Sequence record: PZ171032.1
Origin: a phage
Strand: one strand, 5' to 3'
DNA: 64,000 nt
Both the position numbers and the translations under genes were made by a program. The notes under the pieces were generated by a model that saw nothing but the letters and a program-made list of their open reading frames with translations, had not been told where the DNA came from and did no database searches. Positions within the stretch are counted from its first letter, which is position 1; every line of letters starts with the position of its first letter. Positions 4,601 to 47,883 of the stretch are shown one piece after another.

Positions 4601-4995
4601 TGGTAAGCCTATACCGTGTTGAGTATAGCTCAGATACTGTATACAACGTAAGAAGCAAAGATCGCAGCGACAGAGTGCAAGAAATGTATGTTCTTGCCGA
4701 CAGTCCGTTATCTGCAGCGTTCAAGGCAGGGGCTCTTGCATCTCGTTGGAAATTTGAAGGCGGATCTTTCTATGAAGAAACCCTTGAAGATTCTGTTGTT
4801 ATTTCTTCTGTAGAGGTTTCAGATGACTACGAAGGGAAAAAGTTCGTAATGCGGCACCCACACAGCAACATTGCGTACTACTGGGATGTTCTGAACAACG
4901 AGTGGACCCCAGATCTTCAGAAGGCCACTGTGCTAACACCGTTTTTGGCAGATAAGTTCCCACCAGAAGGTAATTTATCCGCACTGTTTCAGTAA
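4600..4995 (+). CDS. hypothetical protein, paralogue family B
   Basis: paralogue of 2391-2789; start overlaps upstream stop. Confidence 0.6.
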   Translation: MVSLYRVEYSSDTVYNVRSKDRSDRVQEMYVLADSPLSAAFKAGALASRWKFEGGSFYEETLEDSVVISSVEVSDDYEGKKFVMRHPHSNIAYYWDVLNNEWTPDLQKATVLTPFLADKFPPEGNLSALFQ

Positions 4996-5013
4996 TTTTC
5001 TTGCACACAGGTG

Positions 5014-5042
5014 TTGACAACACCAACCCTGTGTGAAATAAT
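5014..5042 (+). promoter_or_regulatory. sigma70-type promoter (TTGACA-N17-AATAAT) nested in an inverted repeat
   Basis: TTGACA and AATAAT with 17-nt spacer; flanked by 8-bp inverted repeat CACACAGG / CCTGTGTG (about 5004-5035), operator-like. Confidence 0.55.
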
Positions 5043-5074
5043 ACCTTCATCTTAACAAGACGGGAGACTGATTG

Positions 5075-5332
5075 ATGAAGATTAAACTGAAAAACCTTGA
5101 AATGGCAGAGATTCAGAATGGTGTTGATTTCCGCTCTAAAGATGGTGACATCTTAGAGGTAAATCTTCCAACCTACGAGCTGATTAAAGGTTTTGGCAAC
5201 GTTCAGGAAGAGGATATTCCAGAAATTCTTATGATGTTGATTCTTGACGGAACTGTGTTTGTAGGTGAAGGTGAGAACGCTATTGCAATCCCAGGCCATT
5301 TTTATGAAGTAGTTGACGAAGAGGTGCTGTAA
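5075..5332 (+). CDS. hypothetical protein (family A-like C-terminus)
   Basis: ATG at 5075 preceded by GGGAGA; C-terminus FYEVVDEEVL. Confidence 0.6.
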   Translation: MKIKLKNLEMAEIQNGVDFRSKDGDILEVNLPTYELIKGFGNVQEEDIPEILMMLILDGTVFVGEGENAIAIPGHFYEVVDEEVL

Positions 5333-5683
5333 ATGAAAGTAGAAATTACTGGTTTTGATGTTAGTGTGGTTCCGGAAGATATTTTAGCTAAACTCCCGGA
5401 AGGTTTTGGTAACGGTGTTGTGGTGGATGCTGTTCCTCCTACTAAAGACATTCTGCTGCAGTATGGTGTAGCAGAGGAAGATGTCGATAAAGTTCTTACA
5501 ATGATGGCAATCGATCGTGTTGTCGTTGTTAAAGGTCTCGATAATTTTGAGAGTGATCCTCTGATTATTCGCGGGGATGACTATAAAATCATCGATAATG
5601 AAGGCCAAGAGTTCTATGAGCCTTGTGCAGAAGATATTCTTAACTTATTACTGGAAGCAGGCACCGAAGAGGAGGACGAATAA
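5333..5683 (+). CDS. hypothetical acidic protein
   Basis: start immediately after upstream stop; acidic C-terminus. Confidence 0.6.
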   Translation: MKVEITGFDVSVVPEDILAKLPEGFGNGVVVDAVPPTKDILLQYGVAEEDVDKVLTMMAIDRVVVVKGLDNFESDPLIIRGDDYKIIDNEGQEFYEPCAEDILNLLLEAGTEEEDE

Positions 5684-6012
5684 TGAAGATTGACCCGTTA
5701 CTGAAGGCTCGTGCAGAAAAAGCGTACACCATTAAGCTGACCAACCTGGTTCCTACTTGTCATCCAGATGTAGGTTGGCCTGAAGGTCTGGTAGAGGGGA
5801 CTGTAACAGCTGCATACCTTCCTAACATCAAATACCTTATGGAAATCTTAGAGATGGATGAGGAAACTGCAGAACAGTTCCAGTTGGATATGAAACAGAG
5901 TGGGACTCTGGTTATTCACGGGTGGTATAATACTAAAGATGCAGAAGACCCTCTGGTAACTTCTAATCTGGCATATGAAATCTTAGGGCCTTTGAACCTG
6001 GAGGAAGACTAA
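5683..6012 (+). CDS. hypothetical protein
   Basis: ATGA overlap with upstream gene. Confidence 0.6.
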   Translation: MKIDPLLKARAEKAYTIKLTNLVPTCHPDVGWPEGLVEGTVTAAYLPNIKYLMEILEMDEETAEQFQLDMKQSGTLVIHGWYNTKDAEDPLVTSNLAYEILGPLNLEED

Positions 6013-6299
6013 TGAAAGATCTGGTTAAGATTAAGATTAAAGATACCAATGGGGAGCTCAGCCATTTTGGAATTAATGATGGTGACGAGCTGATCGCACA
6101 CCTGCCTACCAAGGAGGTTGTAAGCAAAGCAGTTGCCGGAGAAGAAGCTGCAATGCAGGCTGCAGGTGTGGATGAAAACTATGTAGCTATGTGCATGTGC
6201 CGAGATCAGGTTGTTCTGTATAAAGCGTATCGACCAAACGGAGCCACGGAGTGGCTTGTATTCCGACCCGAAGGATATGAAATCTTAGAGGCACTATGA
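6012..6299 (+). CDS. hypothetical protein
   Basis: ATGA overlap. Confidence 0.6.
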   Translation: MKDLVKIKIKDTNGELSHFGINDGDELIAHLPTKEVVSKAVAGEEAAMQAAGVDENYVAMCMCRDQVVLYKAYRPNGATEWLVFRPEGYEILEAL

Positions 6300-6379
6300 T
6301 AAATCTTGCCAAGGTTGCAACGGCACTGTTAATTATTTGCTGGTCAGTAACCTTAACACTGTGTCTTGTATTTCAGTGA
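6296..6379 (+). CDS. tiny hydrophobic peptide (27 aa)
   Basis: ATGA overlap with upstream stop; predicted single TM segment LLIICWSVTLTLCLV. Confidence 0.25.
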   Translation: MINLAKVATALLIICWSVTLTLCLVFQ

Positions 6380-6388
6380 GGTGCTTGT

Positions 6389-6652
6389 ATGAACATCCTG
6401 ATGTGGGTTATAGCAGTGGCGTTTGTTGCATGTTTTTGCTGCTGGGTTGTGGTGAGGATTTCTGTAGCTACCCTTCGGAAGTTGGGGTTCTCAGAATGGG
6501 ATATTAATATCCTTTCTTTTCGCAATGAAACAATCTCAGCCGCCCTGCTTTGTAAGAAATTTAAGTGGGAACCTTGTGAGGTCATGAGCTATCTAAGAAC
6601 AGGCGATATCCCTGAAAGATTTAAAAAAGTTCTTGACGGCAAGGATAAATGA
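6389..6652 (+). CDS. hypothetical membrane protein
   Basis: GTGAGGTG RBS; N-terminal TM helix WVIAVAFVACFCCWVVV. Confidence 0.6.
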   Translation: MNILMWVIAVAFVACFCCWVVVRISVATLRKLGFSEWDINILSFRNETISAALLCKKFKWEPCEVMSYLRTGDIPERFKKVLDGKDK

Positions 6653-6680
6653 CAGTATAGTGACTAACAAGAGGTGAGGG

Positions 6681-6821
6681 GTGACTGATTTTACTGAAGC
6701 TTTAATGATGGCCTTGTCTGTTTTAGCGCTATCGGTGTGTTTTGGGGCGTTATTCACATCTCTGGTTAAAGTTTTACATACAGTATTATTACCCAAGGGG
6801 CGCAGTAATGACGAAGATTGA
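6681..6821 (+). CDS. small hydrophobic protein (about 46 aa; GTG start, may start at internal ATG)
   Basis: GAGGTGAGGG RBS then GTG; TM-like LMMALSVLALSVCFGALF; overlaps next gene start. Confidence 0.3.
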   Translation: MTDFTEALMMALSVLALSVCFGALFTSLVKVLHTVLLPKGRSNDED

Positions 6822-7059
6822 CTTGAATGCTGGCGATCATGTTGTTGTCAAATGCATTGGAGATTATCTTGGATTCACAATCGGCAATACTTACGAGGCG
6901 ATAGTGGCGAAGGTTTATCATGATAAAGTCCTCAGTCTTGTATTTGACTGCGATGATGATGGGGATGACCGATACGTCTGTGAGGTGCTGGCACGAGACG
7001 ATAGTGAAGACCAGAAATTTCTGGTTATTGAACTGAACGGTATTTTTGTAGAACGTTAA
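6808..7059 (+). CDS. hypothetical acidic protein
   Basis: track ORF starts at 6742 (non-ATG); first ATG at 6808 (MTKIDLNAG). Confidence 0.6.
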   Translation: MTKIDLNAGDHVVVKCIGDYLGFTIGNTYEAIVAKVYHDKVLSLVFDCDDDGDDRYVCEVLARDDSEDQKFLVIELNGIFVER

Positions 7060-7087
7060 TTTAAAACAACATAAGGAGACTCTTACT

Positions 7088-7393
7088 ATGGCTAAATCTA
7101 AAGTTGAACTGTTCACCTCTCTTCCTTCTGACACTGCAGAGCGTGATCGCCTTCGCAAAACAATCGAAGAACTGGTGGAACTCCAACTTCAGATTAAAGA
7201 TCTGAAAGATGCCATTAAGGATATCATTCTCGTTGAGAAGCAGGATCATCTGTATTCTCCTAAATTCATCAAATCTTTGGTGGCTACAGAGTTTGATATC
7301 CGCTACGAAGCTGAAAAACGTCGCGCTAAGATTGAAGAAGAGGTTGAGCACATGTCTGAGGCAGACATTCTGTTCAAACGCTCTGTAGAATAA
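7088..7393 (+). CDS. hypothetical protein (charged, helical-looking)
   Basis: AAGGAGA RBS; charged helical composition. Confidence 0.6.
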   Translation: MAKSKVELFTSLPSDTAERDRLRKTIEELVELQLQIKDLKDAIKDIILVEKQDHLYSPKFIKSLVATEFDIRYEAEKRRAKIEEEVEHMSEADILFKRSVE

Positions 7394-7445: not shown

Positions 7446-7772
7446 ATGAGAATGCCAATCACTGTGAAAGAGCTAAATGAACGTGATGCAGGTGGTCTAT
7501 GGCCTGCACGAAAAATCCGCTGCGTCTATATGAAAGAGAATCTTGAACACCTTGATCAACAGATCAAGGTCGGTGATATTTTCGAGGTCTTCTATTCCAA
7601 TCGTCGCAACTGGGAAACCATTCAGCCTTCTGGTTTTGTTCTTGCCAAACTTGACACTGGAGAAGTGATTATCCCTGGGTTGGATATTGTCTTCGAAATT
7701 ATCCAGGAGTGGGATCCGGATAAGATTAGATACGAAGAATTATTCGGTAAAGGTATTATCAAACCTGTGTGA
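7446..7772 (+). CDS. hypothetical protein
   Basis: track ORF starts inside the hairpin at 7395; in-frame ATG at 7446 (MRMPITVKE) lies after the hairpin. Confidence 0.6.
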   Translation: MRMPITVKELNERDAGGLWPARKIRCVYMKENLEHLDQQIKVGDIFEVFYSNRRNWETIQPSGFVLAKLDTGEVIIPGLDIVFEIIQEWDPDKIRYEELFGKGIIKPV

Positions 7773-7780
7773 GGTGGATT

Positions 7781-8080
7781 ATGTCTACAAAGGCAGCTAA
7801 ATACTCTTATATGCCATCAACCTCTGCAGAGGTAGACTTTAGTTTCGATGTATTTCCACTGTTTGAGGTGGTTCTGGCATACCCTACAATACTATCTACA
7901 CCTGAATCACTTGTGCCTGTTAAGTTGCAGAACGCTATGCATTCCATGCACTACAACAATAAATGTAGGCACAGATGGTGTCAGGACGAGGAAAAAGATT
8001 TGGATAGTTTGAGGGATTTTGACAGTCACCTTTTGACACCTTTTAGCTACTCCAATCTTGATAAGCCCTCTTGGGTATAG
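7781..8080 (+). CDS. hypothetical protein
   Basis: track start GTG 7769; ATG at 7781 preceded by GTGAGGTG. Confidence 0.55.
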   Translation: MSTKAAKYSYMPSTSAEVDFSFDVFPLFEVVLAYPTILSTPESLVPVKLQNAMHSMHYNNKCRHRWCQDEEKDLDSLRDFDSHLLTPFSYSNLDKPSWV

Positions 8081-8293
8081 CAAAATATCAAATTTAAGAC
8101 ACCTAGGACGCTCTGTGGCGTCCTTTTCTTTATCTGGTGCACGATTGCATACCTTTGACAGATAATCTCATTACAGAGCGTTTAAGAGCTTCCTACAAAC
8201 AAATCTCTCTTTCGAGCGTAGCGAGAACGCACGTCCGTTTTGACCCAAATCACCATACGCTCGGATTTTAACCAAACCCTCGCGGCGTTTCTG

Positions 8294-8322
8294 TTGACAC
8301 ATTACCGCTTCAGTGATAGTAT
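8294..8322 (+). promoter_or_regulatory. sigma70-type promoter (TTGACA-N17-TAGTAT)
   Basis: CTGTTGACACA...CTTCAG...ATAGTAT closely matches the promoter at 3104. Confidence 0.55.
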
Positions 8323-8342
8323 CCACACATAGTTTGGAGAAT

Positions 8343-8444
8343 ATGGAATACACAATGAAAACACTGTCAGAGGTTTTAGTGGTGATCCTGATGATCATTA
8401 CGTCCATAGCAGCTGTTGCCGGAATACTCACGGGTGGAACATGA
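8343..8444 (+). CDS. tiny hydrophobic peptide (33 aa)
   Basis: just downstream of promoter; TM-like VLVVILMIITSIAAVAGIL; ATGA overlap with next gene. Confidence 0.35.
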   Translation: MEYTMKTLSEVLVVILMIITSIAAVAGILTGGT

Positions 8445-8653
8445 TCAACACACATGCATCTGAAGAGATATCCGAAGGAGTGACCATATGTCCCTTGGCT
8501 GAGCTAGGGAAAGAGGAAAACTTCGATTCTGAAGATTCTCCATCTCCGTCCCAGGGAGACCCTGAGGCTGATGACCTAACGTGGGAGGATATCATAGCCA
8601 TCTGGTTCTCTATTATGCCTGAGCACGAAGAGTTCAGAGGTGGGAGACTATGA
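8441..8653 (+). CDS. hypothetical acidic protein
   Basis: ATGA coupling to upstream peptide; acidic. Confidence 0.5.
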   Translation: MINTHASEEISEGVTICPLAELGKEENFDSEDSPSPSQGDPEADDLTWEDIIAIWFSIMPEHEEFRGGRL

Positions 8654-8774
8654 AGCACCGAGCCCACACAGGTTCCTCATGCTTTAGCATGGCCTGAAGA
8701 GGCAAACGTGCATAATTCCTGTGCATTGGAACGTATAAAACCCTGTTCACACTCTCATTTCCAGAGGAGATTTC

Positions 8775-8990
8775 ATGAAAATAGAAATATTTGGTGGGGC
8801 TGACAACACTCGTGGCCTGATTTACCTTGAATTCGATGAATCATACCTGCCAGAGGTGTTAAATATGGACTCTGTTGCTGAGGCTTTGGGGGTAAGTCCT
8901 AAAGAACTCCACTCTTGTGCTGAGATCGATGGTTGGGAAGAGACCATGAACATTGATTTCAGTGAAGTAGGTGATGAACCGCTGGACTGA
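8775..8990 (+). CDS. hypothetical protein
   Basis: GAGGAG RBS upstream of ATG. Confidence 0.55.
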   Translation: MKIEIFGGADNTRGLIYLEFDESYLPEVLNMDSVAEALGVSPKELHSCAEIDGWEETMNIDFSEVGDEPLD

Positions 8991-10489
8991 CACACAATAT
9001 TAGATGTCCGGCTAAAGTGCTGGAAGCACCTATAGCATATCTTTCAACTAAATTTCCTACCACCACAATCACTTACCTCCCACACATGACTGTTTGCTTG
9101 TTTAGTGAGCAGTCATGCCTTGACATTCTTGCCTATCCTGATAAAATTAAGTTCTTCTCTTTTCTTTTACCGAGTAATTCGGGTTTTCTGTTCTCTTCGG
9201 TTTGAAGGGGTATGGAGATACACCTGAGTGAACAGGGTGAACAACCGAACATTCGGCTATGGCATTAGCATGGCGAAGCGAACGGGTGACGAAAGAGGGG
9301 CCGGAGGACACCAGTCACTGCCATATGATATATGGGTGATAACCTGAAGAGTCTGAATAAGTGTTTAAGTACCAGTCAGAGGAAAAGGTGAATGGTAGCC
9401 GAAGGGGGAGGGGGGGTTTCTTGTATCTTTAATTTGTATATTATGTATACACTTGTAAACCAATTTCATCTGAATCTGTTTACCATACAAAGTGGATTGA
9501 GACAAATATTACCTATTAAACTTGAATTATTTATAGAAAATACCACAACACACCTTAAGTCTTTGATTTTACACATAAATCCTACAGATATTCAACCTCC
9601 ATATTTAACATACTTGTAACATATCCTATACCACACCTGCCTGATCAATTTCCCCAACTACATCCTCTATATTTTACCTGCCTGTACTACCCCTGCCCCG
9701 CCGGGAGTCCCGTCATATCTGGCTTTCCAGCAAATATCCCACCAACAAATATCATTGCCTGAAGAGGGTTTCATCCCATAATACATGCCTTATCTGAAGA
9801 GCGCTTCATACACCACGTAAATTTTTTAATTGACCCCTCCCCGCCGCCGGAGAGGTTGGCTTTTCCCACACAGACCTGAAGAGTCAGCCAGAAATATCTG
9901 AATAGGCCCAATTCTACCACGATTTTGACCTGACCTACAGGGAGGCCCGAAGGGTCTAGCTTTCAGCTAGAGTCCTTGCAGGACCTACAGGAGTGCTGCC
10001 AGGCGGACGGAATGGGAATACTTCTCATTTTTATAATAATTCTCAAATATCGAGGCAGTGAGGCAAATTAATAGGTGAGGCCGTTCACACAGTGGCACAA
10101 CATTTGCAACCTATCTTGTGTGGGGGAATGATAATACCTATCATTGTGAGAACCATTATCATTACGGGCAATTTAACATAATACCCATTATGCGCACCAC
10201 TGGCGATACATACAGGGATTGATAACATGAGTTACAGTTTACGCATATAACAATTATATTTCTTATCATTTGTGTGGGATATAGTTAGCAGCCAATAGAT
10301 TAGATATTGACCTGCATACTTCCAACCGTCTAGACGTCTAAACGCCCACACACCAAGGATTATACATACACTCCTGAATGTAAACAGGGCCGCAAAAATG
10401 CTACCATACAAGCTTGTAAATTTTTCATGCAGCACTTGACAAAGAGGAGAAAAACTTGTCTGACATAATGTGACCTAACTGACACAACA

Positions 10490-39610: not shown

Positions 39611-40107
39611 TTATTGCGCTCCTTGTAGTAGATATGACTCCCGAATTGAGCTGTCCTCTGCATCTTTTTTGCCCATTTCGGTCGTACTTTGGTCGTATGG
39701 TAGTGTGTTGCTCCACCTGTTATATCCATAGCCATGTATGCAACATGGTTGTTATTATAGACCTTTAGAAGCATCTTTGCAAGACTTTTAGCGTGATCCC
39801 ATGAATCTTTTTCTGTCACCTTAAAAGTTTTGCCGTAGTTTGTCCACGAAAACTGATTAGGTTGGTAGACAATCTTTCTTATAGTGTCCGGGTATTTGGG
39901 ATGAGATTTCCTGTTTAGGGTGGCAAACCCAGATGCCAGCATACCCATCGTGCCATCCCCTCTAGCTTCCCTGTAGATATTGCATGCTAGAATGTTTTCC
40001 TTAGTATCTGATGGCTTGCAAGTATGGTATACTTTTTGTTTTGGTGCTGCAACAACAGGCAGCGATAAAAATGCGCTCAAAATAATAGCAAAGATCTTAA
40101 TTTTCAC
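39607..40107 (-). CDS. SleB-like cell wall hydrolase with cleavable signal peptide (endolysin candidate)
   Basis: N-terminal signal peptide MKIKIFAIILSAFLSLPVVA; hydrolase_2 motifs NIYREARGD and VYQPNQFSWTN. Confidence 0.7.
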   Translation of the reverse strand: MKIKIFAIILSAFLSLPVVAAPKQKVYHTCKPSDTKENILACNIYREARGDGTMGMLASGFATLNRKSHPKYPDTIRKIVYQPNQFSWTNYGKTFKVTEKDSWDHAKSLAKMLLKVYNNNHVAYMAMDITGGATHYHTTKVRPKWAKKMQRTAQFGSHIYYKERNK

Positions 40108-40156
40108 AATGACTCCAAATAGAAAATCCCCGCCGAAGCGGGGGAGGTCTTAGAAA

Positions 40157-40537
40157 TTAATCGTAGTGTGCCAAAATCTCTCCATCGTTGCAAGTTCCCT
40201 CTACAAAGTTATGAAGATTCATGCACTCATCTTGATAGAAGAATTTACCGCTTTTCAGCCGTAGGCCAAACAACTCCGCATCTCCACGATGGCAAGCCTC
40301 TACAAGTTCATAGATTTCATACGGCAACTCTCCGTCGTCATGGAAGAATCCAGCCTTATCGTTGACATAAATGAAGAAATAATCACTGCTATCGCAAGCG
40401 TCCAATATTTTAAACCAGATTTCATCTACATCTTTTTCTCGGATATCGATCACGCAAGTGGAGCTGCATTCGTACTCCTTCTCCGGCTCCTCGGTCAATA
40501 CCACCAGGTAGTTTCCCCGCTTACCTACTTTAGCCAT
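40157..40537 (-). CDS. hypothetical protein
   Basis: ORF; no motif. Confidence 0.55.
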   Translation of the reverse strand: MAKVGKRGNYLVVLTEEPEKEYECSSTCVIDIREKDVDEIWFKILDACDSSDYFFIYVNDKAGFFHDDGELPYEIYELVEACHRGDAELFGLRLKSGKFFYQDECMNLHNFVEGTCNDGEILAHYD

Positions 40538-40546
40538 ACAACCCCC

Positions 40547-41731
40547 TTAAGCTTTAGCCAAAATGGCGCTAAACTCTTCACCAAACTCTTTTACAATCTT
40601 CATCAGGTTTGGGTATGCTTTGATCAACTGAGCAACAATCTTGTCACGCCCTTTACCGATAAGCAAGGCATTTCCTAAGGCGTTAGGTTTCATCATCGCC
40701 ATAAAGACTGAGAATACAAAATCTCGGTTCTCGTCCTTGAAATTTTCCCAAAGGAAATCGAGGAAGTTTGCCACACAGCTAACAAGATCTTCGTCGGAGA
40801 TACTTGCATTTTCCATCATATTGCGAATAGCGATACAACCTTCAGATCCAAGAATCCACAAAATGTCTGGCTGCTTAGGACCTACGTATTCTTTGCAGCC
40901 ACCTGCCATAATCCGACCGATTTCCGGTAAATTACGTTTCTTGGTGTGGTAAGTCCAGATCTCTACCGCTGCAGTGTGACCAATAGCACCTTGTAGAAGA
41001 ACACGGGCCATAGCGTCAGAAATAATACCGCTGTCAAAATCGTGCAAGATGTCAGATGCAGCAACCCAAGATCGCGGTGTGGCAAAAGATGGACAATTAA
41101 TCTCAGCCATAGCCTCATAATTATCAATAGCTGAGGGAACTCTTTTCAAATATCCAATTACAGAGGAATGCACCCCATTAAGGAATGCGTAGTCCTCAAT
41201 AAACACCTCTGCATTGCTTGTAACCTCTACAATGATAAAACGGTTAGCCAGAGGGGCTTCGAGCGCCGAAAGAACCGCACCATCTGTAGAACGGTTACCC
41301 GCAGCCACAAAAACAGAACCCTTAGGGAATGCATAGGTGCCGCACTTGTGGTCAAGCATAATTTGCATTGCAACCTTTTGCAGGTAGTTATCTGCATGAG
41401 TGAGCTCATCCAGAAAGATAATTCCGCTCCAGTCAGGATCCGCAGGCCAAAATTCTGGAATTGCAAACACTGTACGTGTAGTTCCATCCGCTTCTACAGG
41501 GATAGGTAGCCCAGATAAGTCGGCAGGATCTTTATCTGACAGTCGCACGTCAACAAGGTTGTCATCTCGCTCACCGAACATATTATCAGCGATCTGCTTC
41601 ATCACCTGGCTTTTACCCACACCCATTGGTCCCAAAATTAGGACAGATCGGCTATGACGTTGGGCAAACTGAATAATAGCTGGCAACTCACGGACAGTGA
41701 TTTGACCACTTTCGAATACGTTTCTTGACAT
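40547..41731 (-). CDS. MoxR/CbbQ-like AAA+ ATPase
   Basis: Walker A LILGPMGVGKS; Walker B IIFLDELTHAD; sensor-1-like VFVAAGN. Confidence 0.75.
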   Translation of the reverse strand: MSRNVFESGQITVRELPAIIQFAQRHSRSVLILGPMGVGKSQVMKQIADNMFGERDDNLVDVRLSDKDPADLSGLPIPVEADGTTRTVFAIPEFWPADPDWSGIIFLDELTHADNYLQKVAMQIMLDHKCGTYAFPKGSVFVAAGNRSTDGAVLSALEAPLANRFIIVEVTSNAEVFIEDYAFLNGVHSSVIGYLKRVPSAIDNYEAMAEINCPSFATPRSWVAASDILHDFDSGIISDAMARVLLQGAIGHTAAVEIWTYHTKKRNLPEIGRIMAGGCKEYVGPKQPDILWILGSEGCIAIRNMMENASISDEDLVSCVANFLDFLWENFKDENRDFVFSVFMAMMKPNALGNALLIGKGRDKIVAQLIKAYPNLMKIVKEFGEEFSAILAKA

Positions 41732-42000
41732 TAGTAAAAGTCCTCTACTTGTGTGTAAGTGTTTTCAAAGTTTTCCAAAACAGATATCACATCGAATCTG
41801 TCAATATCATACGTGACTCTCCAGTTGTACGCAACCCTTTCTGCTGTTGCCTCTTCTGGCGCTAGTCGTCTGCTGGCATAAAAGAGTGTTGGAGTACACT
41901 TTCTTGCTTGCCCTCTAACTTTCCCATAATAATATCTGTGAATATCTTTGTCAAAATTTAACTCTTTTTCTGCACGAAGTTCATATTGCTGGTATAACAT
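41731..42000 (-). CDS. hypothetical protein
   Basis: stop/start overlap. Confidence 0.5.
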   Translation of the reverse strand: MLYQQYELRAEKELNFDKDIHRYYYGKVRGQARKCTPTLFYASRRLAPEEATAERVAYNWRVTYDIDRFDVISVLENFENTYTQVEDFY

Positions 42001-42044
42001 CTCTACTACTCCTTAAGCAGCATCCTTGCCGCCATTCCTGCCCA

Positions 42045-42425
42045 CTAAAATGCAGTCCGAATCCAGACAAGGTTCTTATCTGCCCAATCATAGAGGCAAG
42101 TCATTGCACTATTGAATTGCTCACACGGAGGATAATCTTCTTCCATCTGGCGCATAGCAGAGCCTTGTGGGTAAAGCTCCCGTGCTGCAAACCACGCGTC
42201 GTAGTCATCAACGGTGTCGAAGTAGTATACAACATCCTCTAACTCAGGATCGAACTTTGAACTATCAGGATCCAGTTGTTCAGGGAACTTGGAGCGTAAC
42301 TTGCCAGCTACAATACTTGCCAACTCGCTAACATGCTTATTGTCCCACTCCACTAGCTTCCCGTCTTCAGTGATGCGTCCTAACCACTGATCATGAAGGT
42401 CAACTGTTGTCTTCCACTGGGCCAT
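42045..42425 (-). CDS. hypothetical protein
   Basis: ORF. Confidence 0.55.
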   Translation of the reverse strand: MAQWKTTVDLHDQWLGRITEDGKLVEWDNKHVSELASIVAGKLRSKFPEQLDPDSSKFDPELEDVVYYFDTVDDYDAWFAARELYPQGSAMRQMEEDYPPCEQFNSAMTCLYDWADKNLVWIRTAF

Positions 42426-42427
42426 TA

Positions 42428-42685
42428 TCAGTCCACCTCTTCTTCTCGTTGTAGTTCAAGATACCCGTAGGTCTGGACATCTTCAAGGGTGTGGAACTCC
42501 CCATCTGCCGCTAATGCACGAACAACTTGGCACAAAACCTTATGAGGAACTTCATCCAGACCAAGATTCAGTGCAGGGAACACCTTATCTAAGTCAACAA
42601 AATAAATGAACTGTAGCTCACCAGCTTCAAAAGGTGTATCTTCAATAAACATCTTCTCGGCATTAGTCAAGATCTGCACTTTCAT
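42428..42685 (-). CDS. hypothetical protein
   Basis: ORF. Confidence 0.5.
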   Translation of the reverse strand: MKVQILTNAEKMFIEDTPFEAGELQFIYFVDLDKVFPALNLGLDEVPHKVLCQVVRALAADGEFHTLEDVQTYGYLELQREEEVD

Positions 42686-43041
42686 TATTCTACCTCCTCT
42701 TCTTTTTCTTCGGCATTAGTTTCATGGCTACCCCACTCCGGAGTTTCCACCTCGATAGTAAACTCACGCACTACACGGTAATTGCCCATGAAGCGCTCTA
42801 CTTCGTCAAGGCTTATGGAGAGGCCATTGGCAACCAGGTCTGCAGCACCCTCTTCTACCAGGTAGTCCAGATTGGCTTCCAGAGCCTCAGGTTCAAACCC
42901 TGTCAATGCAATCAGATAACCTTCCCCTTCATCAGGGAGGACAATACAGCCCAATTGATTTTCTTTAAAAAGGCAGTGACCATCATTATTGATTGGGTGT
43001 TCATTGCAGTAAATAGCTGCACGATAAGTAACTTTAGACAT
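42685..43041 (-). CDS. hypothetical acidic protein beginning MSKVTYRA
   Basis: ATG at 43041 preceded by TAAGGAGA RBS; RBS plus first 8 codons lie in a 30-bp repeat shared with 44880-44908. Confidence 0.55.
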   Translation of the reverse strand: MSKVTYRAAIYCNEHPINNDGHCLFKENQLGCIVLPDEGEGYLIALTGFEPEALEANLDYLVEEGAADLVANGLSISLDEVERFMGNYRVVREFTIEVETPEWGSHETNAEEKEEEVE

Positions 43042-43054
43042 CGGTAAGGTCTCC

Positions 43055-43333
43055 TTAGGCAATTGTCATTTTACATTCTTGAAATTTTAACACAAGACGG
43101 TGATTGTGTCTAGTGTCTAAAAAGATTTTTTCAACCATCAGGCACACGGTATAACCGTCCATCTTGTTGACAACAAAATCTCCAGGATGAGGGAGGATGT
43201 CTCCCGGATTGGGGAAACATAGTCCACTCAGAAAGGCATCGTCAGTGGTGGACTTAATAGATTTCCACACACTGTCTGCCTGAACATGTTCACCGACGTA
43301 ATATACATTACCACATGCCTTCATCATAGTCAA
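43055..43333 (-). CDS. hypothetical protein
   Basis: ORF. Confidence 0.5.
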   Translation of the reverse strand: MTMMKACGNVYYVGEHVQADSVWKSIKSTTDDAFLSGLCFPNPGDILPHPGDFVVNKMDGYTVCLMVEKIFLDTRHNHRLVLKFQECKMTIA

Positions 43334-44229
43334 ACCCTCGCATAAATTAAACTTGTATCAGTATACTTCTTTAATGGGTAAATATCCTGTCCATAGATGC
43401 AATCATTAAACACCTCATCTACCCAAAGGCTACACTTATATCCCATCATTTCTAAAACACCCATCTCTTCTTCGGTAAACTTATCACCGCTCTTGCAAGA
43501 TGTCAATACCTCATTCTGAACTCTTGCTACCTCGAAGCGGTTATTGGCAATATCGCTATTGGCGATCAAATACTCACCTAGAGGGTGTGCGGCATTAAAG
43601 ATGCACAGTGGACGGCTGACGTAATAGTCTCCGGGTGTATAAAAATTGTTGAGGTCTTTCACTAGAACATTCTTATCAGTCACTTCATTTATAACATCAT
43701 GCATATCGCACATCTTTATATGTTTGAGGATTCCATCCCCCATCACAAAATAAAAACTTGCTGAGACACTTTCGGCATAGATCTTACTAGATCCGTTGTA
43801 GTTGTATTTTACTCGGATGCTAACGGGGGTTTTTCCTGTCGCGTTAGCCATCATCCAAAGAAATGGCAGCTCATACTTCTCCTCTGAGGAAACAAAAGGT
43901 GAGGTAGCCAGAGATCGAAAACCTCCAGAGAAGTTGAAAGTTACAGAACCGCTCCGGCGGTATGATACCGCGTATTCTACTTTTATATCGACATACCCAT
44001 TGGAATAGGTGTGTCCTTCATTATCTAAATATGTCCACTTATCAGACCCAGATACCAATCTACGCTCAATAACCTTCATCACTATAGGAATTAATGGGTT
44101 GGTACAAACCGCTTTTGAAGTAGCTTTATCATCTAAAGCCTCGTAAATTGCAGAAAGGATGTCCCCAGCTGAAAGATTGGTTGTTATGTCCTGTTTCCAC
44201 CGCGTACTAAAACTGTTAAGATTTGCCAT
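43330..44229 (-). CDS. hypothetical protein
   Basis: first gene of minus-strand array, downstream of divergent promoter. Confidence 0.6.
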   Translation of the reverse strand: MANLNSFSTRWKQDITTNLSAGDILSAIYEALDDKATSKAVCTNPLIPIVMKVIERRLVSGSDKWTYLDNEGHTYSNGYVDIKVEYAVSYRRSGSVTFNFSGGFRSLATSPFVSSEEKYELPFLWMMANATGKTPVSIRVKYNYNGSSKIYAESVSASFYFVMGDGILKHIKMCDMHDVINEVTDKNVLVKDLNNFYTPGDYYVSRPLCIFNAAHPLGEYLIANSDIANNRFEVARVQNEVLTSCKSGDKFTEEEMGVLEMMGYKCSLWVDEVFNDCIYGQDIYPLKKYTDTSLIYARV

Positions 44230-44269
44230 AAGTAAGTGCTCCTATGTTAGTTTTCTTTCGAATGGGTGC

Positions 44270-44298
44270 ACTATATTGTGGAGTTAGAGTAAAGTCAA
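44270..44298 (-). promoter_or_regulatory. sigma70-type promoter (TTGACT-N17-TATAGT), minus strand, divergent
   Basis: hexamers on minus strand about 40 nt upstream of ATG at 44229 with AGGAG RBS. Confidence 0.5.
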
Positions 44299-44311
44299 CA
44301 CGTTTTTGATG

Positions 44312-44340
44312 TTGACATCTGTTGAGACAATTGATACGAT
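44312..44340 (+). promoter_or_regulatory. sigma70-type promoter (TTGACA-N17-TACGAT), plus strand, divergent
   Basis: hexamers; inverted repeat GTCAACA...TGTTGAC spans the two -35 regions. Confidence 0.5.
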
Positions 44341-44371
44341 TTCTTCACTTACAGAGCACGAGAGACGACTC

Positions 44372-45349
44372 ATGAATCTTGAAAAATATTATACACCAGA
44401 AGAGTTAGAGCGCTTGCTCAAAAAATATAGACGCAAACAGAATAACGCACGGAAACGAGATATAGAGTTCGACCTGTCATGGGAAGAATACCTCCTATTT
44501 GGTAAAAAACTTTTAGGAGATGGAGTATGCGACTATACCCTTATACCTTTTGACATGCACACAGATGAAAACGGGCTGGGGAATCCTTTCTACCCATCTC
44601 TGGAGCGGATAGATGATGAAGGTCCTTATGCGGTTGATAACTGTTGTGTGGTGGGATTGAGATGCAACTCTCTAAAGGACTGTCTGGTAGATAAAAAGAC
44701 TGCAGTCTTGATTAAAGACGAAACTGATCGAAAAATTGTCCAGCAGATGATGCTCCACCTGAGCGAAGAGCGTATGGAGAAATTGAAAGGTGATTATACT
44801 TTTGAAGATTTCATCTTGCAATATGGAACGGAAGAGGATAAACTAGCACTCTTTGACGAAGAAGAGGAGGAAGATATGCTACCGATGTCTAAAGTTACTT
44901 ATCGTGCACCCAAGAAGCACATTTCCGACATTGTAAACGAGCCTATCACAGAAGAGATTGAAGAAATGACGCAACAGGTGCATGAAGAGGAAAAAGAGAC
45001 TCAGGAGGTCGAAGAGGAGATTACAGAAGAGGTTCCTGCACTACCTGATGATGTTGAGATTGCCAAAGCTTACACTTTCTATTGTCAAACGTTCTACGAT
45101 GTAGGTATGAAAGTTGATCTGTCGTTCAGCCAATTTAAGAGTTCGTATATTCGCAAATGCTGTGCTTTAACTGGTGAACGTCTTGGAGCTGGACTTAAAC
45201 CCCTGTTGGTGACCGACTGGAATAAAGGTTTCACTAAAGGAAACTTTATGGTAGTATCTCCAATTATGGAGAAAGCTATGACAGATCTTATGAAGACCAC
45301 CCGCATGACAATGACCGAGTTGGCAGGTATTTTCAAACACGTTAAATAA
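44372..45349 (+). CDS. hypothetical acidic two-part protein (internal MSKVTYRA segment)
   Basis: track ORF starts at TTG 44306 inside the promoter; first ATG at 44372; contains internal copy of the 30-bp repeat. Confidence 0.6.
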   Translation: MNLEKYYTPEELERLLKKYRRKQNNARKRDIEFDLSWEEYLLFGKKLLGDGVCDYTLIPFDMHTDENGLGNPFYPSLERIDDEGPYAVDNCCVVGLRCNSLKDCLVDKKTAVLIKDETDRKIVQQMMLHLSEERMEKLKGDYTFEDFILQYGTEEDKLALFDEEEEEDMLPMSKVTYRAPKKHISDIVNEPITEEIEEMTQQVHEEEKETQEVEEEITEEVPALPDDVEIAKAYTFYCQTFYDVGMKVDLSFSQFKSSYIRKCCALTGERLGAGLKPLLVTDWNKGFTKGNFMVVSPIMEKAMTDLMKTTRMTMTELAGIFKHVK

Positions 45350-45382
45350 TGACAGGGGCCAATGGCCCCTTCTGGAGTTTTA

Positions 45383-46843
45383 ATGGATAGCAGAAGTTCA
45401 GAAATCATTGCCTCGCAGAAAGATGATGCCCTGAGAATGTTGCAGGCTGCACGTATGTATCTCCTTGAAAAGCTGCCGTTTTATGGCACACTACTGTCAG
45501 GGTTGCAGTTCGTAGAAAACCACACATGGTGCTCCACCATGGCAACCGACCATAAACGCATCTATTACAGTCCTGAGTTCATTATGGGATTGGCTGATGA
45601 GCGCAAGGCTATTCTTAAGGCTTCTCTAACTGACGAGCAGTTTGAGATGGCTGAAGTTTTCTATTCCCCAAAATCTGTGAAAGAGGTGGCCTTCCTTCTG
45701 TCACATGAGGTGGGGCATATTATCTGTGATCATCTAGTCCGTGGTAAAAGCTTTGAGCCGGAACTGTTCAATATTGCTTGTGATCACGTTATCAACACAG
45801 GCCTTGTGGTTGACTTTAGCAAACCTCCTTGTGTTTTCTTCCCGAAGGGGAAAAGCACTACGTTCATGAAAGGTAAGCCTTTTGGCTTCTTAGCCAGCTG
45901 CTACTGTGACATGAGGTTTCATGGATGGATTGCTGAGAACGTTTATGCAGTTCTTGATAAGCAAAGAGATCAGAATAACGGTAAAAGTAAGAACGGTAAA
46001 GGTGAGAACTCTCAAAGTGATAAGCGACAAACCGATGATCACATGAGTGGGAACGGTGGCACCAGTGATAATCTTGGAAAGGCTATGGGGTATGATCAGC
46101 CACAACCTGTAATCAGCCAATCTGATAAAGATCAGGCCATGCAGGACTCTGGTGATATGCTGGAGGCAGCAATGCAAGCTTCCGGAGGTCGTTGCCCTGA
46201 GGCGGTGCGTGAGTTTGTCAAGAACAGGGGTAAGCCTGTAATCAACTATATAGACATCATTAAGCAACGCATGTTGTCTAAACGAAAGGCTGAACTGACC
46301 TACAGAAAACCTGGTCGCCGATCTGGGTCTTTGACCAGCACAATGCGAAAAGTTGGGGCTATAAACAAGAACCAGCACGTTATTGTTCCCGGTCGTAATC
46401 CGGAAAACACCATAGATATTGTTGTAGCTTTAGACGTTTCTGGCTCGATCTCTCAAAGAACTTTAAAGAAAATGTTCAATGAAATCACCGGATTGTGCAA
46501 TCTGTATAAAGAGTTTAAGGTTACAATGTTCTGTTGGTCAACTGAGGTTGGAGAGGTTAAAGTATACACTCGCGGTAACATAGATGAGATGATCAACTAT
46601 GAGGTCCACTCAACATGGGGCACAACAGCTGCTTGCGTGTTCGAGTATCTAGATGCCAACATACCAAATGCAAAAGATGTCATCGTATTGACCGACCTAT
46701 ACTTTGAGCATAACTTTGAACAAAAGGCTGTTGACAACAAGTGGAAAAAGTACGATACTTTATGGGTTCTCACCGAAGGGTATAATAAAAATTATATCCC
46801 TAGCTTTGGGAAAACTGTGGAATTAATCGAGTACGCTAAGTAA
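45383..46843 (+). CDS. vWA-domain protein with N-terminal putative metallopeptidase-like domain (HExxH)
   Basis: HEVGH motif in N-terminal half; MIDAS-like D-x-S-G-S (VVALDVSGSIS) in C-terminal half; start moved to ATG 45383 with GGAG RBS, alternative ATG at 45362. Confidence 0.7.
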   Translation: MDSRSSEIIASQKDDALRMLQAARMYLLEKLPFYGTLLSGLQFVENHTWCSTMATDHKRIYYSPEFIMGLADERKAILKASLTDEQFEMAEVFYSPKSVKEVAFLLSHEVGHIICDHLVRGKSFEPELFNIACDHVINTGLVVDFSKPPCVFFPKGKSTTFMKGKPFGFLASCYCDMRFHGWIAENVYAVLDKQRDQNNGKSKNGKGENSQSDKRQTDDHMSGNGGTSDNLGKAMGYDQPQPVISQSDKDQAMQDSGDMLEAAMQASGGRCPEAVREFVKNRGKPVINYIDIIKQRMLSKRKAELTYRKPGRRSGSLTSTMRKVGAINKNQHVIVPGRNPENTIDIVVALDVSGSISQRTLKKMFNEITGLCNLYKEFKVTMFCWSTEVGEVKVYTRGNIDEMINYEVHSTWGTTAACVFEYLDANIPNAKDVIVLTDLYFEHNFEQKAVDNKWKKYDTLWVLTEGYNKNYIPSFGKTVELIEYAK

Positions 46844-46858
46844 GAGAGGAGGTTATTT

Positions 46859-47122
46859 ATGGCAACAGAGTTAAAATTTGCATCAAACCGTAAAACTAAG
46901 AAGTATCTGTCCTCAGTAGCTCCAGGCACTGTGGTGATGTTTGTTGATGAACTTGGGGATGTGAATACAGCACTTGTTGTAAAATCACATCCTGCAAACA
47001 TATATGTTGGGGTATTTGACCTGTTCAGAAAGGTGTTTGTAGAACTGCCTCACAGTTTGGTTGTTACAGAAATGGATGCCTGCATAGAAATTCTTGGCGA
47101 AGTTATGGTGGAGGAACAATAA
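46859..47122 (+). CDS. hypothetical protein, tandem paralogue 1 of 4
   Basis: four consecutive about 87-aa ORFs with shared pattern (K..GTVV...D.......V...ELD..I.ILGE). Confidence 0.6.
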   Translation: MATELKFASNRKTKKYLSSVAPGTVVMFVDELGDVNTALVVKSHPANIYVGVFDLFRKVFVELPHSLVVTEMDACIEILGEVMVEEQ

Positions 47123-47385
47123 TGGCTACCAGCATTGTATTCAATTCTAAGGTGAAGAACAAAAAGCGTGCAGACAGTTTTCCGTGTGGGACCGTGGTAA
47201 GTTGCGACGGAGACGGCATTCAAAACATAGTTATGATTGTCAAAACAGGAGAACATTGTGTGTGGGGGTTCGATTTAGAAAATAATGAGTTGTACGATCT
47301 GCCGCCAAACATGAAAGTTACAGAGCTTGACACCAAAATTACCATCCTTGGAGAGACAAGCTATTCAAAAGAAGGAGGAGAATAA
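47122..47385 (+). CDS. hypothetical protein, tandem paralogue 2 of 4
   Basis: paralogue; ATGA overlap. Confidence 0.6.
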   Translation: MATSIVFNSKVKNKKRADSFPCGTVVSCDGDGIQNIVMIVKTGEHCVWGFDLENNELYDLPPNMKVTELDTKITILGETSYSKEGGE

Positions 47386-47648
47386 TGACCACAAAAATCA
47401 CTATCGCAGAACCGAAAGCTAACACTCAGCCTATCGAAAAGTTTAAGTGCGGTGAGGTGGTAACATTCACACCAGATAATGAAGATGCTAAGATTTTCGC
47501 AATGGTCACAGCTGAGTGGATGTGTGACAACACCACACAGGTTCTGCGTTTTGACACCTATCTTACCGATGAAATCAGGAACGACAAGATTGTGACTGGT
47601 GTGGATACTGAGATTGTTTTCTACAAGAGCTTTTTAGAGGGTTTCTGA
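47385..47648 (+). CDS. hypothetical protein, tandem paralogue 3 of 4
   Basis: paralogue; ATGA overlap. Confidence 0.6.
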   Translation: MTTKITIAEPKANTQPIEKFKCGEVVTFTPDNEDAKIFAMVTAEWMCDNTTQVLRFDTYLTDEIRNDKIVTGVDTEIVFYKSFLEGF

Positions 47649-47649
47649 T

Positions 47650-47883
47650 ATGGCAAAAATTAGAAAATTATCTAGCAATCAGGTTGTGAAAGACTTCGAA
47701 TCTGGAGAGATTCTTTATGTTCGTGATGCAGATGACGAAGGTGAAGATCTCGTTATGTTGGTGGGGCACGCTGAGGACGGATGCATCCAAGCTGTTTTTC
47801 TTGAAACAGCTATGGTGCACTGGATAGAGCTGGACCTGAAAGCACGAAAACCTAAAGCAGAAATCCTGATTTACGAAGATTAA
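47650..47883 (+). CDS. hypothetical protein, tandem paralogue 4 of 4
   Basis: paralogue, more divergent. Confidence 0.55.
   Translation: MAKIRKLSSNQVVKDFESGEILYVRDADDEGEDLVMLVGHAEDGCIQAVFLETAMVHWIELDLKARKPKAEILIYED

Follow-up and report, generated by a model that had tools for sequence, protein, structure and literature searches.

Are two genes that lie 3651 nt apart, on opposite strands of a phage genome, the two halves of one molecular machine, and what would such a machine do? This question is raised by a 64,000-nt stretch of phage DNA (sequence record PZ171032.1; the whole stretch is called the window here), in which a gene for a MoxR-type AAA+ ATPase and a gene for a protein with a zincin-like segment and a von Willebrand factor A (vWA) domain flank a divergent promoter region. 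We found that the ATPase and vWA genes form a real pair across phage lineages. Our preferred reading, held with somewhat better than even confidence, is that the pair is a single ATP-driven remodelling and proteolysis machine, non-structural and at work in early or mid infection.

The two genes and their products

The window is an rV5-like Vequintavirus, with a genome of about 137 kb. Over positions 40000-47000 the best-matching records are rV5-like coliphages (rV5_ev146, Murica, LL12, CM1 and others), at 97.6-99.2% identity across the full length, and all 122 records that match this region belong to the genus Vequintavirus and are at least 90% identical to it. Over the same positions, identity to E. 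coli rV5-like phages is also 93-99% in sixteen records that carry the name "Campylobacter phage" (host C. jejuni), which suggests mislabelled hosts or contamination in these deposits. The features on which the argument draws are the following.

40128 to 40143, minus strand: terminator-like hairpin two genes past the ATPase gene start, at the end of the leftward unit made up of genes 10 to 3
40547 to 41731, minus strand: MoxR-clade AAA+ ATPase of 394 amino acids, rV5 gene 4 and homologue of N4 gp24 (open reading frame [ORF] present; motifs, profiles and model)
44270 to 44340, both strands: divergent (bidirectional) sigma70-type promoter region between genes 10 and 11 (promoter-like sequences)
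45354 to 45370, plus strand: hairpin rich in GC, AGGGGCCAATGGCCCCT, that separates the vWA gene from the Srd-like gene 11 and is annotated as a terminator in Murica
45383 to 46843, plus strand: vWA/zincin-like partner of 486 amino acids, rV5 gene 12 and homologue of N4 gp25 (ORF present; Pfam, alignment and model)
45383 to 46360, plus strand: N-terminal DUF2201_N zincin-like domain of the partner, with HEVGH at 45704-45718
46400 to 46840, plus strand: C-terminal vWA (DUF2201) domain of the partner, with the metal ion-dependent adhesion site (MIDAS) motif DVSGS at 46433-46447, plus T414 and D438

We asked whether the leftward gene encodes the MoxR/CbbQ-type ATPase that a preliminary description of this DNA had read there. 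It does: the product of 40547-41731 is a MoxR-clade AAA+ ATPase, by fold closest to the NorQ/CbbQ group. The Walker A motif GPMGVGKS lies at 41609-41632 and the Walker B motif IIFLDE at 41405-41422, positions that we checked in the window. The catalytic motifs were invariant in an alignment of 48 homologues (Walker A G37, G39, K40 and S41; Walker B D108 and E109; sensor 1 N146; arginine finger R164; sensor 2 R220), and Walker B was kept in all 207 unique ATPase sequences. An AlphaFold 2 model with a predicted local distance difference test score of 86.5 contained a hairpin in the helix-2 insert (strands 75-81 and 84-90) and a short hairpin before sensor 1 at about residues 129-134, both typical of the MoxR/dynein/McrB clade, together with an additional C-terminal helical domain of about 110 amino acids. 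NorQ (E 6e-8) and CbbQ2 were the top PDB matches when this model was searched with Foldseek, and the best PDB match to the family profile was midasin (E 4e-10). The protein also matched the PHROG family phrog_1297, "ATPase", at E 2e-110.

The preliminary description had suggested profile searches for both proteins. In the partner, two domains scored above their gathering thresholds. For the ATPase, AAA models were sub-threshold in the Pfam scan of the window protein (AAA_5, 16.7 bits against a cut-off of 22); among its more distant homologues, which number thousands, those at about 31-36% identity carry AAA_3 (the MoxR family model) and AAA_5. The subfamily, recognizable by the motif DVRLSDKEP, is found almost only in viral contigs, with at least 593 viral loci against 10 contigs of metagenome-assembled genomes (MAGs) from 185,579 species' genomes.

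The rightward gene had been described as encoding an N-terminal HEVGH segment and a C-terminal MIDAS-type vWA domain, and this architecture was confirmed by matches to PF13203 (DUF2201_N; E 9e-28, 98.1 bits against a cut-off of 23.2) and PF09967 (DUF2201; E 3e-11, above its gathering score). We found the MIDAS motif, which had been singled out for checking, to be complete: D351, S353, S355, T414 and D438 were invariant in 37 sequences and fall in those loops where the predicted vWA alpha/beta fold, judged by its secondary structure, would place them. H108, E109, H112, H117 and D134 were at least 90% conserved (37 sequences). Among 112 unique partner sequences, all had DxS[GAS]S and 110 had HExxH. 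Fold matches of the partner include the NorD VWA domain, BchD and the MIDAS domain of midasin. Its N-terminal domain had weak sequence matches to M48/HtpX/BepA, to SprT-like proteins and to the MJ1213 minigluzincin, with H117 or D134 as candidate third zinc ligands. This architecture is common: at E<=1e-3 it has 33,318 cluster representatives (50% identity) and at E<=1e-30 still 14,594, and it occurs in 665 of 50,697 phage records.

Two in-frame starts can be considered for the partner. Since a GGAG lies 5 nt 5' of 45383, the alternative ATG at 45362 falls inside the hairpin loop, and the LL12 and Murica annotations place the start at the equivalent of 45383, we take 45383 as the right start.

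Both genes are already annotated in Vequintavirus records. The ATPase gene is labelled "MoxR ATPase" or "ATPase", and the vWA gene "putative metallopeptidase", "metallopeptidase, contains von Willebrand factor domain" or "VWA-like domain containing protein". In the original rV5 paper gene 4 is called "MoxR - ATPase", and gene 12 appears among the conserved hypothetical proteins, with PF13203 noted. Three irregularities in the annotation touch these genes. In the rV5 record DQ832317, gene 12 (7756-9217, equal to 45383-46843 of the window) is split into ORFs of 441 and 81 amino acids, and tblastn needs two pieces to cover it; this is probably a frameshift or sequencing error, because all relatives have a single 486-amino-acid ORF. 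The vWA/zincin family is labelled "HNH endonuclease" in PHROG phrog_1314 and in several RefSeq records (the window gene at 45383-46843; N4 gp25, at 6165-7307 of locus L086; CBB gp217, at 4971-6323 of locus L098), while the Pfam scan found no HNH domain in the protein. This mislabel may stem from phage phiTE, because a gene similar to a putative HNH endonuclease sits between its MoxR and vWA genes. The third concerns an ORF of 89 amino acids at 41731-42000, which overlaps the ATPase start (ATGA) and is called "ATPase" in PHROG phrog_13164 and "ATPase (x2)" in several records. It is without a Pfam match and has homologues in close relatives only, and its label looks like annotation spill-over.

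The pair across phage lineages

The two genes had been described as lying about 3.6 kb apart on opposite strands around divergent promoters. We measured a gap of 3651 nt and found two promoter-like sites in the region between genes 10 and 11: a leftward one running from 44298 to 44270 on the minus strand (TTGACT-17-TATAGT) and a rightward one running from 44312 to 44340 on the plus strand (TTGACA-17-TACGAT, with an extended -10 TG). Counted from this shared region, the ATPase gene comes seventh on the left and the vWA gene second on the right. The ORFs, the motifs and the divergent layout are not attributable to chance.

Profile comparison makes the window pair homologues of gp24 and gp25 of coliphage N4. 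With hhalign, the ATPase family aligned with gp24 at a probability of 99.9 (E 4.7e-35) and the partner family with gp25 at a probability of 100 (E 1.9e-50). A study of 25 N4-like phages counts 14 core genes, among them gp24 (an AAA ATPase, listed there as "unknown") and gp25 (PF13203, listed as "vWFA domain"), and in N4 both belong to the middle transcripts (PMC4193335). The two pairs share domain architecture and catalytic motifs; both are non-virion, with rII and genes of nucleotide metabolism nearby. However, the N4 (Schitoviridae) genes are adjacent and co-directional, with the ATPase first, whereas the rV5-like genes are separated and on opposite strands; the phage RNA polymerase II transcribes the middle genes of N4, whereas the rV5-like pair has predicted sigma70-type promoters; and the rV5 proteins are longer, through the C-terminal helical extension of the ATPase and insertions in the partner.

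We then sampled IMG/VR by the ATPase profile, taking 80 loci out of at least 593. In 68 of the 80 the two genes shared a strand, and the vWA gene followed the ATPase gene after 57-562 nt; nine loci ended too early to judge, two were split and one was without a vWA gene. Up to 52 of 67 analysed loci share neighbouring gene clusters, which weighs against taking the count at face value. Because this one environmental lineage dominates the adjacent loci, we count about 10 independent lineages in support and not 68. On a 4.9-kb contig from a relative at 37-39% identity the vWA gene directly follows the ATPase gene, and the same order was seen on a 164-kb viral contig. The layouts elsewhere were as follows.

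Phage phiTE: pair on the same strand, with an HNH homing-endonuclease gene inserted between
W70-like contigs: pair adjacent, ATPase first
Coliphage N4: pair adjacent and co-directional, ATPase first
Litunavirus Ab09: pair with one small ORF between
Rak2-like jumbo phage CBB: pair adjacent
A 578-kb megaphage contig: pair adjacent
Three further contigs, two from bacterial genomes and one metagenomic, including one bacterial contig of 1.25 Mb: pair adjacent
MAG loci: pair adjacent in 9 of 10

A search by tblastn of 50,697 phage records gave almost identical genus distributions for the two proteins. The partnering of an AAA+ ATPase with a vWA protein, which the preliminary description had invoked from bacterial precedent and had proposed to check in relatives, is thus what most loci show, N4, Litunavirus, phiTE and CBB among them. 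That the genes are functionally unrelated and merely share a region is very improbable. In the window they do belong to different operons on opposite strands, with 3.6 kb between them, but about 10 independent lineages have them side by side, their phyletic distributions match and no other genes of the region are co-conserved.

Outside Vequintavirus, we saw the split, divergent layout in one BIS47/GAP31-like lineage only (locus L006). Because only these two show it, and because phiTE, a member of the Vequintavirus subfamily, has the pair on a single strand, we conclude that the split is derived. Co-regulation after the split was probably kept through the shared promoter region. A third component among the genes between the pair, the 89-amino-acid ORF included, was considered and rejected: none of them co-occurs with the pair in other lineages. 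These intervening genes have no homologues beyond close relatives, save the ORF at 42045-42425 and the Srd-like gene, both of which are also in L006. As a guide to ancestral gene order we also considered phiTE_055 as a Srd homologue, and it had no similarity.

The module itself has already been described, both as N4 gp24/gp25 and by Iyer et al. 2021 (Viruses 13:63, PMC7824862), and is annotated in Vequintavirus records, so its novelty is low. The new elements here are modest: the pairing shown across lineages, the equivalence to N4 gp24/gp25 and the derived state of the Vequintavirus split. Operon-based detection of MoxR-vWA systems would miss the window pair because its halves sit on opposite strands.

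In the megaphage-like 578-kb contig (locus L104, 6529-7926), the pair lies within a cluster of ClpX, Hsp20, ClpS and ClpP genes, with genes for ribosomal protein S21 and an eIF-1a-like protein alongside. The ATPase of this contig has an insertion of about 90 amino acids at the helix-2 insert and the variant Walker motifs GPPGISKS and LALEE.

Proposed action of the pair and competing explanations

How could such a pair work? The window pair differs from all characterised MoxR-vWA couples in having a zincin-like domain fused to the adaptor. NorQ/NorD and CbbQ/CbbO, the best structural matches to the ATPase, likewise have a vWA partner with a MIDAS, but NorD and CbbO have no peptidase domain, their clients (cNOR and Rubisco) are known, and sequence identity is 16-21%. 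The phage ATPase also carries its extra C-terminal helical domain of about 110 amino acids, and the compact DUF2201 vWA domain is without an evident NorD-like finger. Midasin/Rea1, the best PDB profile match to the ATPase family, has its own MIDAS domain among the fold matches of the partner, but this eukaryotic ribosome-biogenesis factor is one giant chain and lacks a peptidase domain. Two further couples can be likened by description. The MoxR-vWA couple of Acidianus two-tailed virus (via PMC7824862) is viral and has a chaperone role in tail development, but it belongs to an archaeal virus, is without the peptidase fusion and has a structural role. Bacillus phage 0305phi8-36 has MoxR-like and vWA-like genes in a deletable island whose loss slows growth.

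In NorQD, the MoxR hexamer holds the vWA domain by a finger in its pore and by the C-terminus of the adaptor; ATP hydrolysis twists and stretches the adaptor linker so that the client is remodelled, with the MIDAS as the likely client contact (PMC13036017). By analogy with NorQ/NorD and CbbQ/CbbO, the vWA protein would be the adaptor or co-chaperone of the ATPase, and possibly an effector, rather than its substrate. The label "chaperone-substrate" in the preliminary description should be replaced on this point.

Since all catalytic residues of the motor and all MIDAS residues are kept, and HExxH in 110 of 112 partner sequences, we propose an ATP-driven machine with an effector on its adaptor. 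Homology, catalytic motifs, predicted folds, gene linkage and genomic position were shown; from these we infer complex formation, ring docking, proteolysis, timing and a client. Gene 4 would supply the MoxR-type AAA+ motor and gene 12 a vWA adaptor fused to a zincin-like peptidase domain. The ATPase would assemble as a hexameric ring, and the C-terminal vWA domain of the partner would dock on it in the manner of NorD with NorQ, CbbO with CbbQ and the MIDAS domain with Rea1. An acidic residue of the client may be captured at the MIDAS, where D351/S353/S355/T414/D438 would bind Mg2+. ATP hydrolysis would then twist and stretch the partner's linker and the client, so that the HExxH site could process the latter. 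A candidate for the linker is an insertion rich in Gly, Asp, Lys, Gln and Asn at about residues 195-245, inside the N-terminal domain of the partner; the model has low confidence at residues 200-228. Because it is disordered and hypervariable in length among homologues, it could serve as a NorD-like stretchable linker. Both genes would be transcribed in early or mid infection from the one bidirectional sigma70-type promoter region, and the proteins would act in the cytoplasm on a phage or host client.

Genes 4 and 12 lie outside the late block (genes 27-66), in units with sigma70 promoters and beside rIIA/rIIB and the Srd-like gene. The rV5 gene table marks no mass spectrometry evidence for gp4 or gp12, and the main text of that paper omits both from the virion proteins; six tryptic peptides of gp4 and gp12 were absent from its supplementary files. 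LL12 annotates a separate prohead protease in its head/morphogenesis module. In the large environmental lineage the pair lies between a 5'-3' exonuclease and thymidylate synthase. In N4, where the pair consists of middle genes amid nucleotide-metabolism and replication genes, it adjoins dCTP deaminase and lies a few genes upstream of rIIA/rIIB. In the 578-kb contig it lies between ClpX/Hsp20/ClpS and ClpP. Because of the locus position, the rV5 mass spectrometry data, the LL12 prohead protease and the neighbours in relatives, we favour a non-structural, proteostasis-type role in early or mid infection. The two functions that the preliminary description thought conceivable, capsid or tail maturation and interference with a host system, correspond to two of the less probable rivals weighed below.

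Most of these observations argue against a virion-assembly chaperone with a maturation protease, in which the couple would help head or tail proteins to fold or assemble while its zincin domain trimmed structural proteins. We regard that explanation as possible but doubtful. It has the published proposal behind it: Iyer et al., who described the MoxR and metallopeptidase-vWA pair from jumbo phages of group 2.2, suggested that it serves virion assembly and proteolytic processing (PMC7824862), with the precedent of Acidianus two-tailed virus. Theirs is the same two-gene module with the same fusion architecture, and Rak2-like CBB carries homologues; however, it was described for jumbo phages with a virion role, whereas the window pair is split and lies in the early region of a genome of about 137 kb. 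The CBB pair is flanked by virion structural genes and Hsp70, roseophage RPP1 has a "second structural module" near its gp24/gp25 homologues (PMC4193335), and chaperones need not show up in virions.

The nearness of nucleotide-metabolism genes, which recurs often, also fits a metal or cofactor insertion chaperone of the NorQD, CoxDE or CobST/BchID chelatase type. Such a chaperone would open a phage or host metalloenzyme for metal loading, and the HExxH would hold metal but cut no peptide. The closest solved structures to the ATPase are NorQ and CbbQ, the vWA matches include the NorD VWA domain and BchD, and the authors on 0305phi8-36 read their MoxR-like gene as metal-chelatase-like. We nevertheless consider this explanation quite unlikely. 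An HExxH on a helix, in a Pfam family of putative metallopeptidases, is a typical peptidase signature. The neighbours vary between lineages, and in the lineages examined no conserved third gene for a client metalloenzyme or a CobN/BchH-like subunit accompanies the pair, although no whole-genome CobN/BchH search was made.

To return to the remodelling and proteolysis machine, a more specific reading of it is conceivable, though less likely than not. The pair might be a phage-specific, ATP-powered metalloprotease, with a logic like that of Cdc48-Wss1 or FtsH, that acts in early or mid infection on a defined client in replication or takeover, such as a DNA-bound or host regulatory protein. If so, this would explain its core status in N4-like, rV5-like and Rak2-like phages, and the rV5 lineage would show two halves working in trans from separate operons. 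A narrower form of our preferred reading is a dedicated counter-defence or host-takeover protease that destroys a specific host immunity factor or a nucleoid or replication factor. The position in an early region beside rIIA/rIIB (which counter Rex) and the Srd-like anti-sigma gene points that way, as do the near restriction of the ATPase subfamily to phages and one locus on a bacterial-genome contig with a helicase, a kinase and a PP2C phosphatase nearby. We judge it unlikely, however: the pair is core in N4-like phages of very different hosts, which fits a housekeeping phage function better, it has no matches to PADLOC defence models, and our literature searches gave no experimental data for it.

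Several points weigh against the machine that we propose. The fold searches gave vWA matches only and tied the partner's N-terminal domain to no solved peptidase fold; the putative peptidase activity therefore rests on HExxH and the Pfam label, and 2 of the 112 unique family members are without HExxH. We saw no evident NorD-like finger or long hairpin insertion in the secondary structure of the 140-amino-acid vWA domain. The early timing would follow from promoter-like sequences and gene position, and a terminator-like hairpin separates gene 11 from gene 12; this hairpin, at 45354-45370, may be an attenuator. In CBB, virion-protein genes and Hsp70 adjoin the pair, and the proposal of Iyer et al. 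(PMC7824862) counts on the same side. Finally, our literature searches, including those with DUF2201 and PF13203, found no experimental data on any phage member of the pair, and the DUF terms returned genome reports only. Papers on the transcriptomes of PA5oct and of Pseudomonas phages are silent on the pair, and the knock-downs in phage EdH4 in the CRISPRi-ART paper were limited to the major capsid protein and rII genes.

The pair is very widespread and conserved, and rV5-like phages are used in biocontrol and therapy against E. coli O157, so an unexplained enzyme pair in them is worth knowing. Through the link to N4 gp24/gp25, genetic results in N4 or EdH4 carry over to rV5-like phages; the question of the client is no more tractable from the window than from N4 itself.

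Neighbouring genes and a repeat

The neighbours in the rV5-like region include rIIA/rIIB, a SleB-like hydrolase and the Srd-like anti-sigma gene. An NCBIfam scan gave nothing informative. Gene 3 (40157-40537, 126 amino acids) lies directly 3' of the ATPase gene, is the last gene before the terminator-like hairpin at 40128-40143 and is listed in the rV5 gene table with a homologue in phage T5 (T5.083). It shows no co-conservation with the pair. Gene 10 (43330-44229) is widely annotated as a "putative alpha 1-3 fucosyltransferase", and the rV5 record cites similarity to the C-terminus of bovine FUT9. We found no Pfam or NCBIfam match for gene 10 and no homologues beyond close relatives. Directly 3' of the vWA gene, at 46859-47883, stand four tandem ORFs of 87, 87, 87 and 77 amino acids that look like paralogues and have homologues in close relatives only; the later ones are 15%-38% identical to the first, the second reaching 38%.

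A perfect 29-nt inverted repeat, TACCGATGTCTAAAGTTACTTATCGTGCA, flanks the divergent promoter at 43018-43046 and 44880-44908. We considered it as the cause or scar of the split and rejected it. An inversion between the arms would not make the pair colinear, the repeat is confined to the Murica clade, and the segment was inverted in 0 of 120 related records. Within that clade it is present in the window, LL12, Murica and rV5_ev146; the gene-11 arm is missing in rV5, FV3 and HMD-6. The repeat is probably the scar of a recent recombination. It codes for (L)PMSKVTYRA twice, once at the start of gene 8 on the minus strand and once in frame within the Srd-like gene 11, after an acidic linker, where an internal start or a domain swap is possible.

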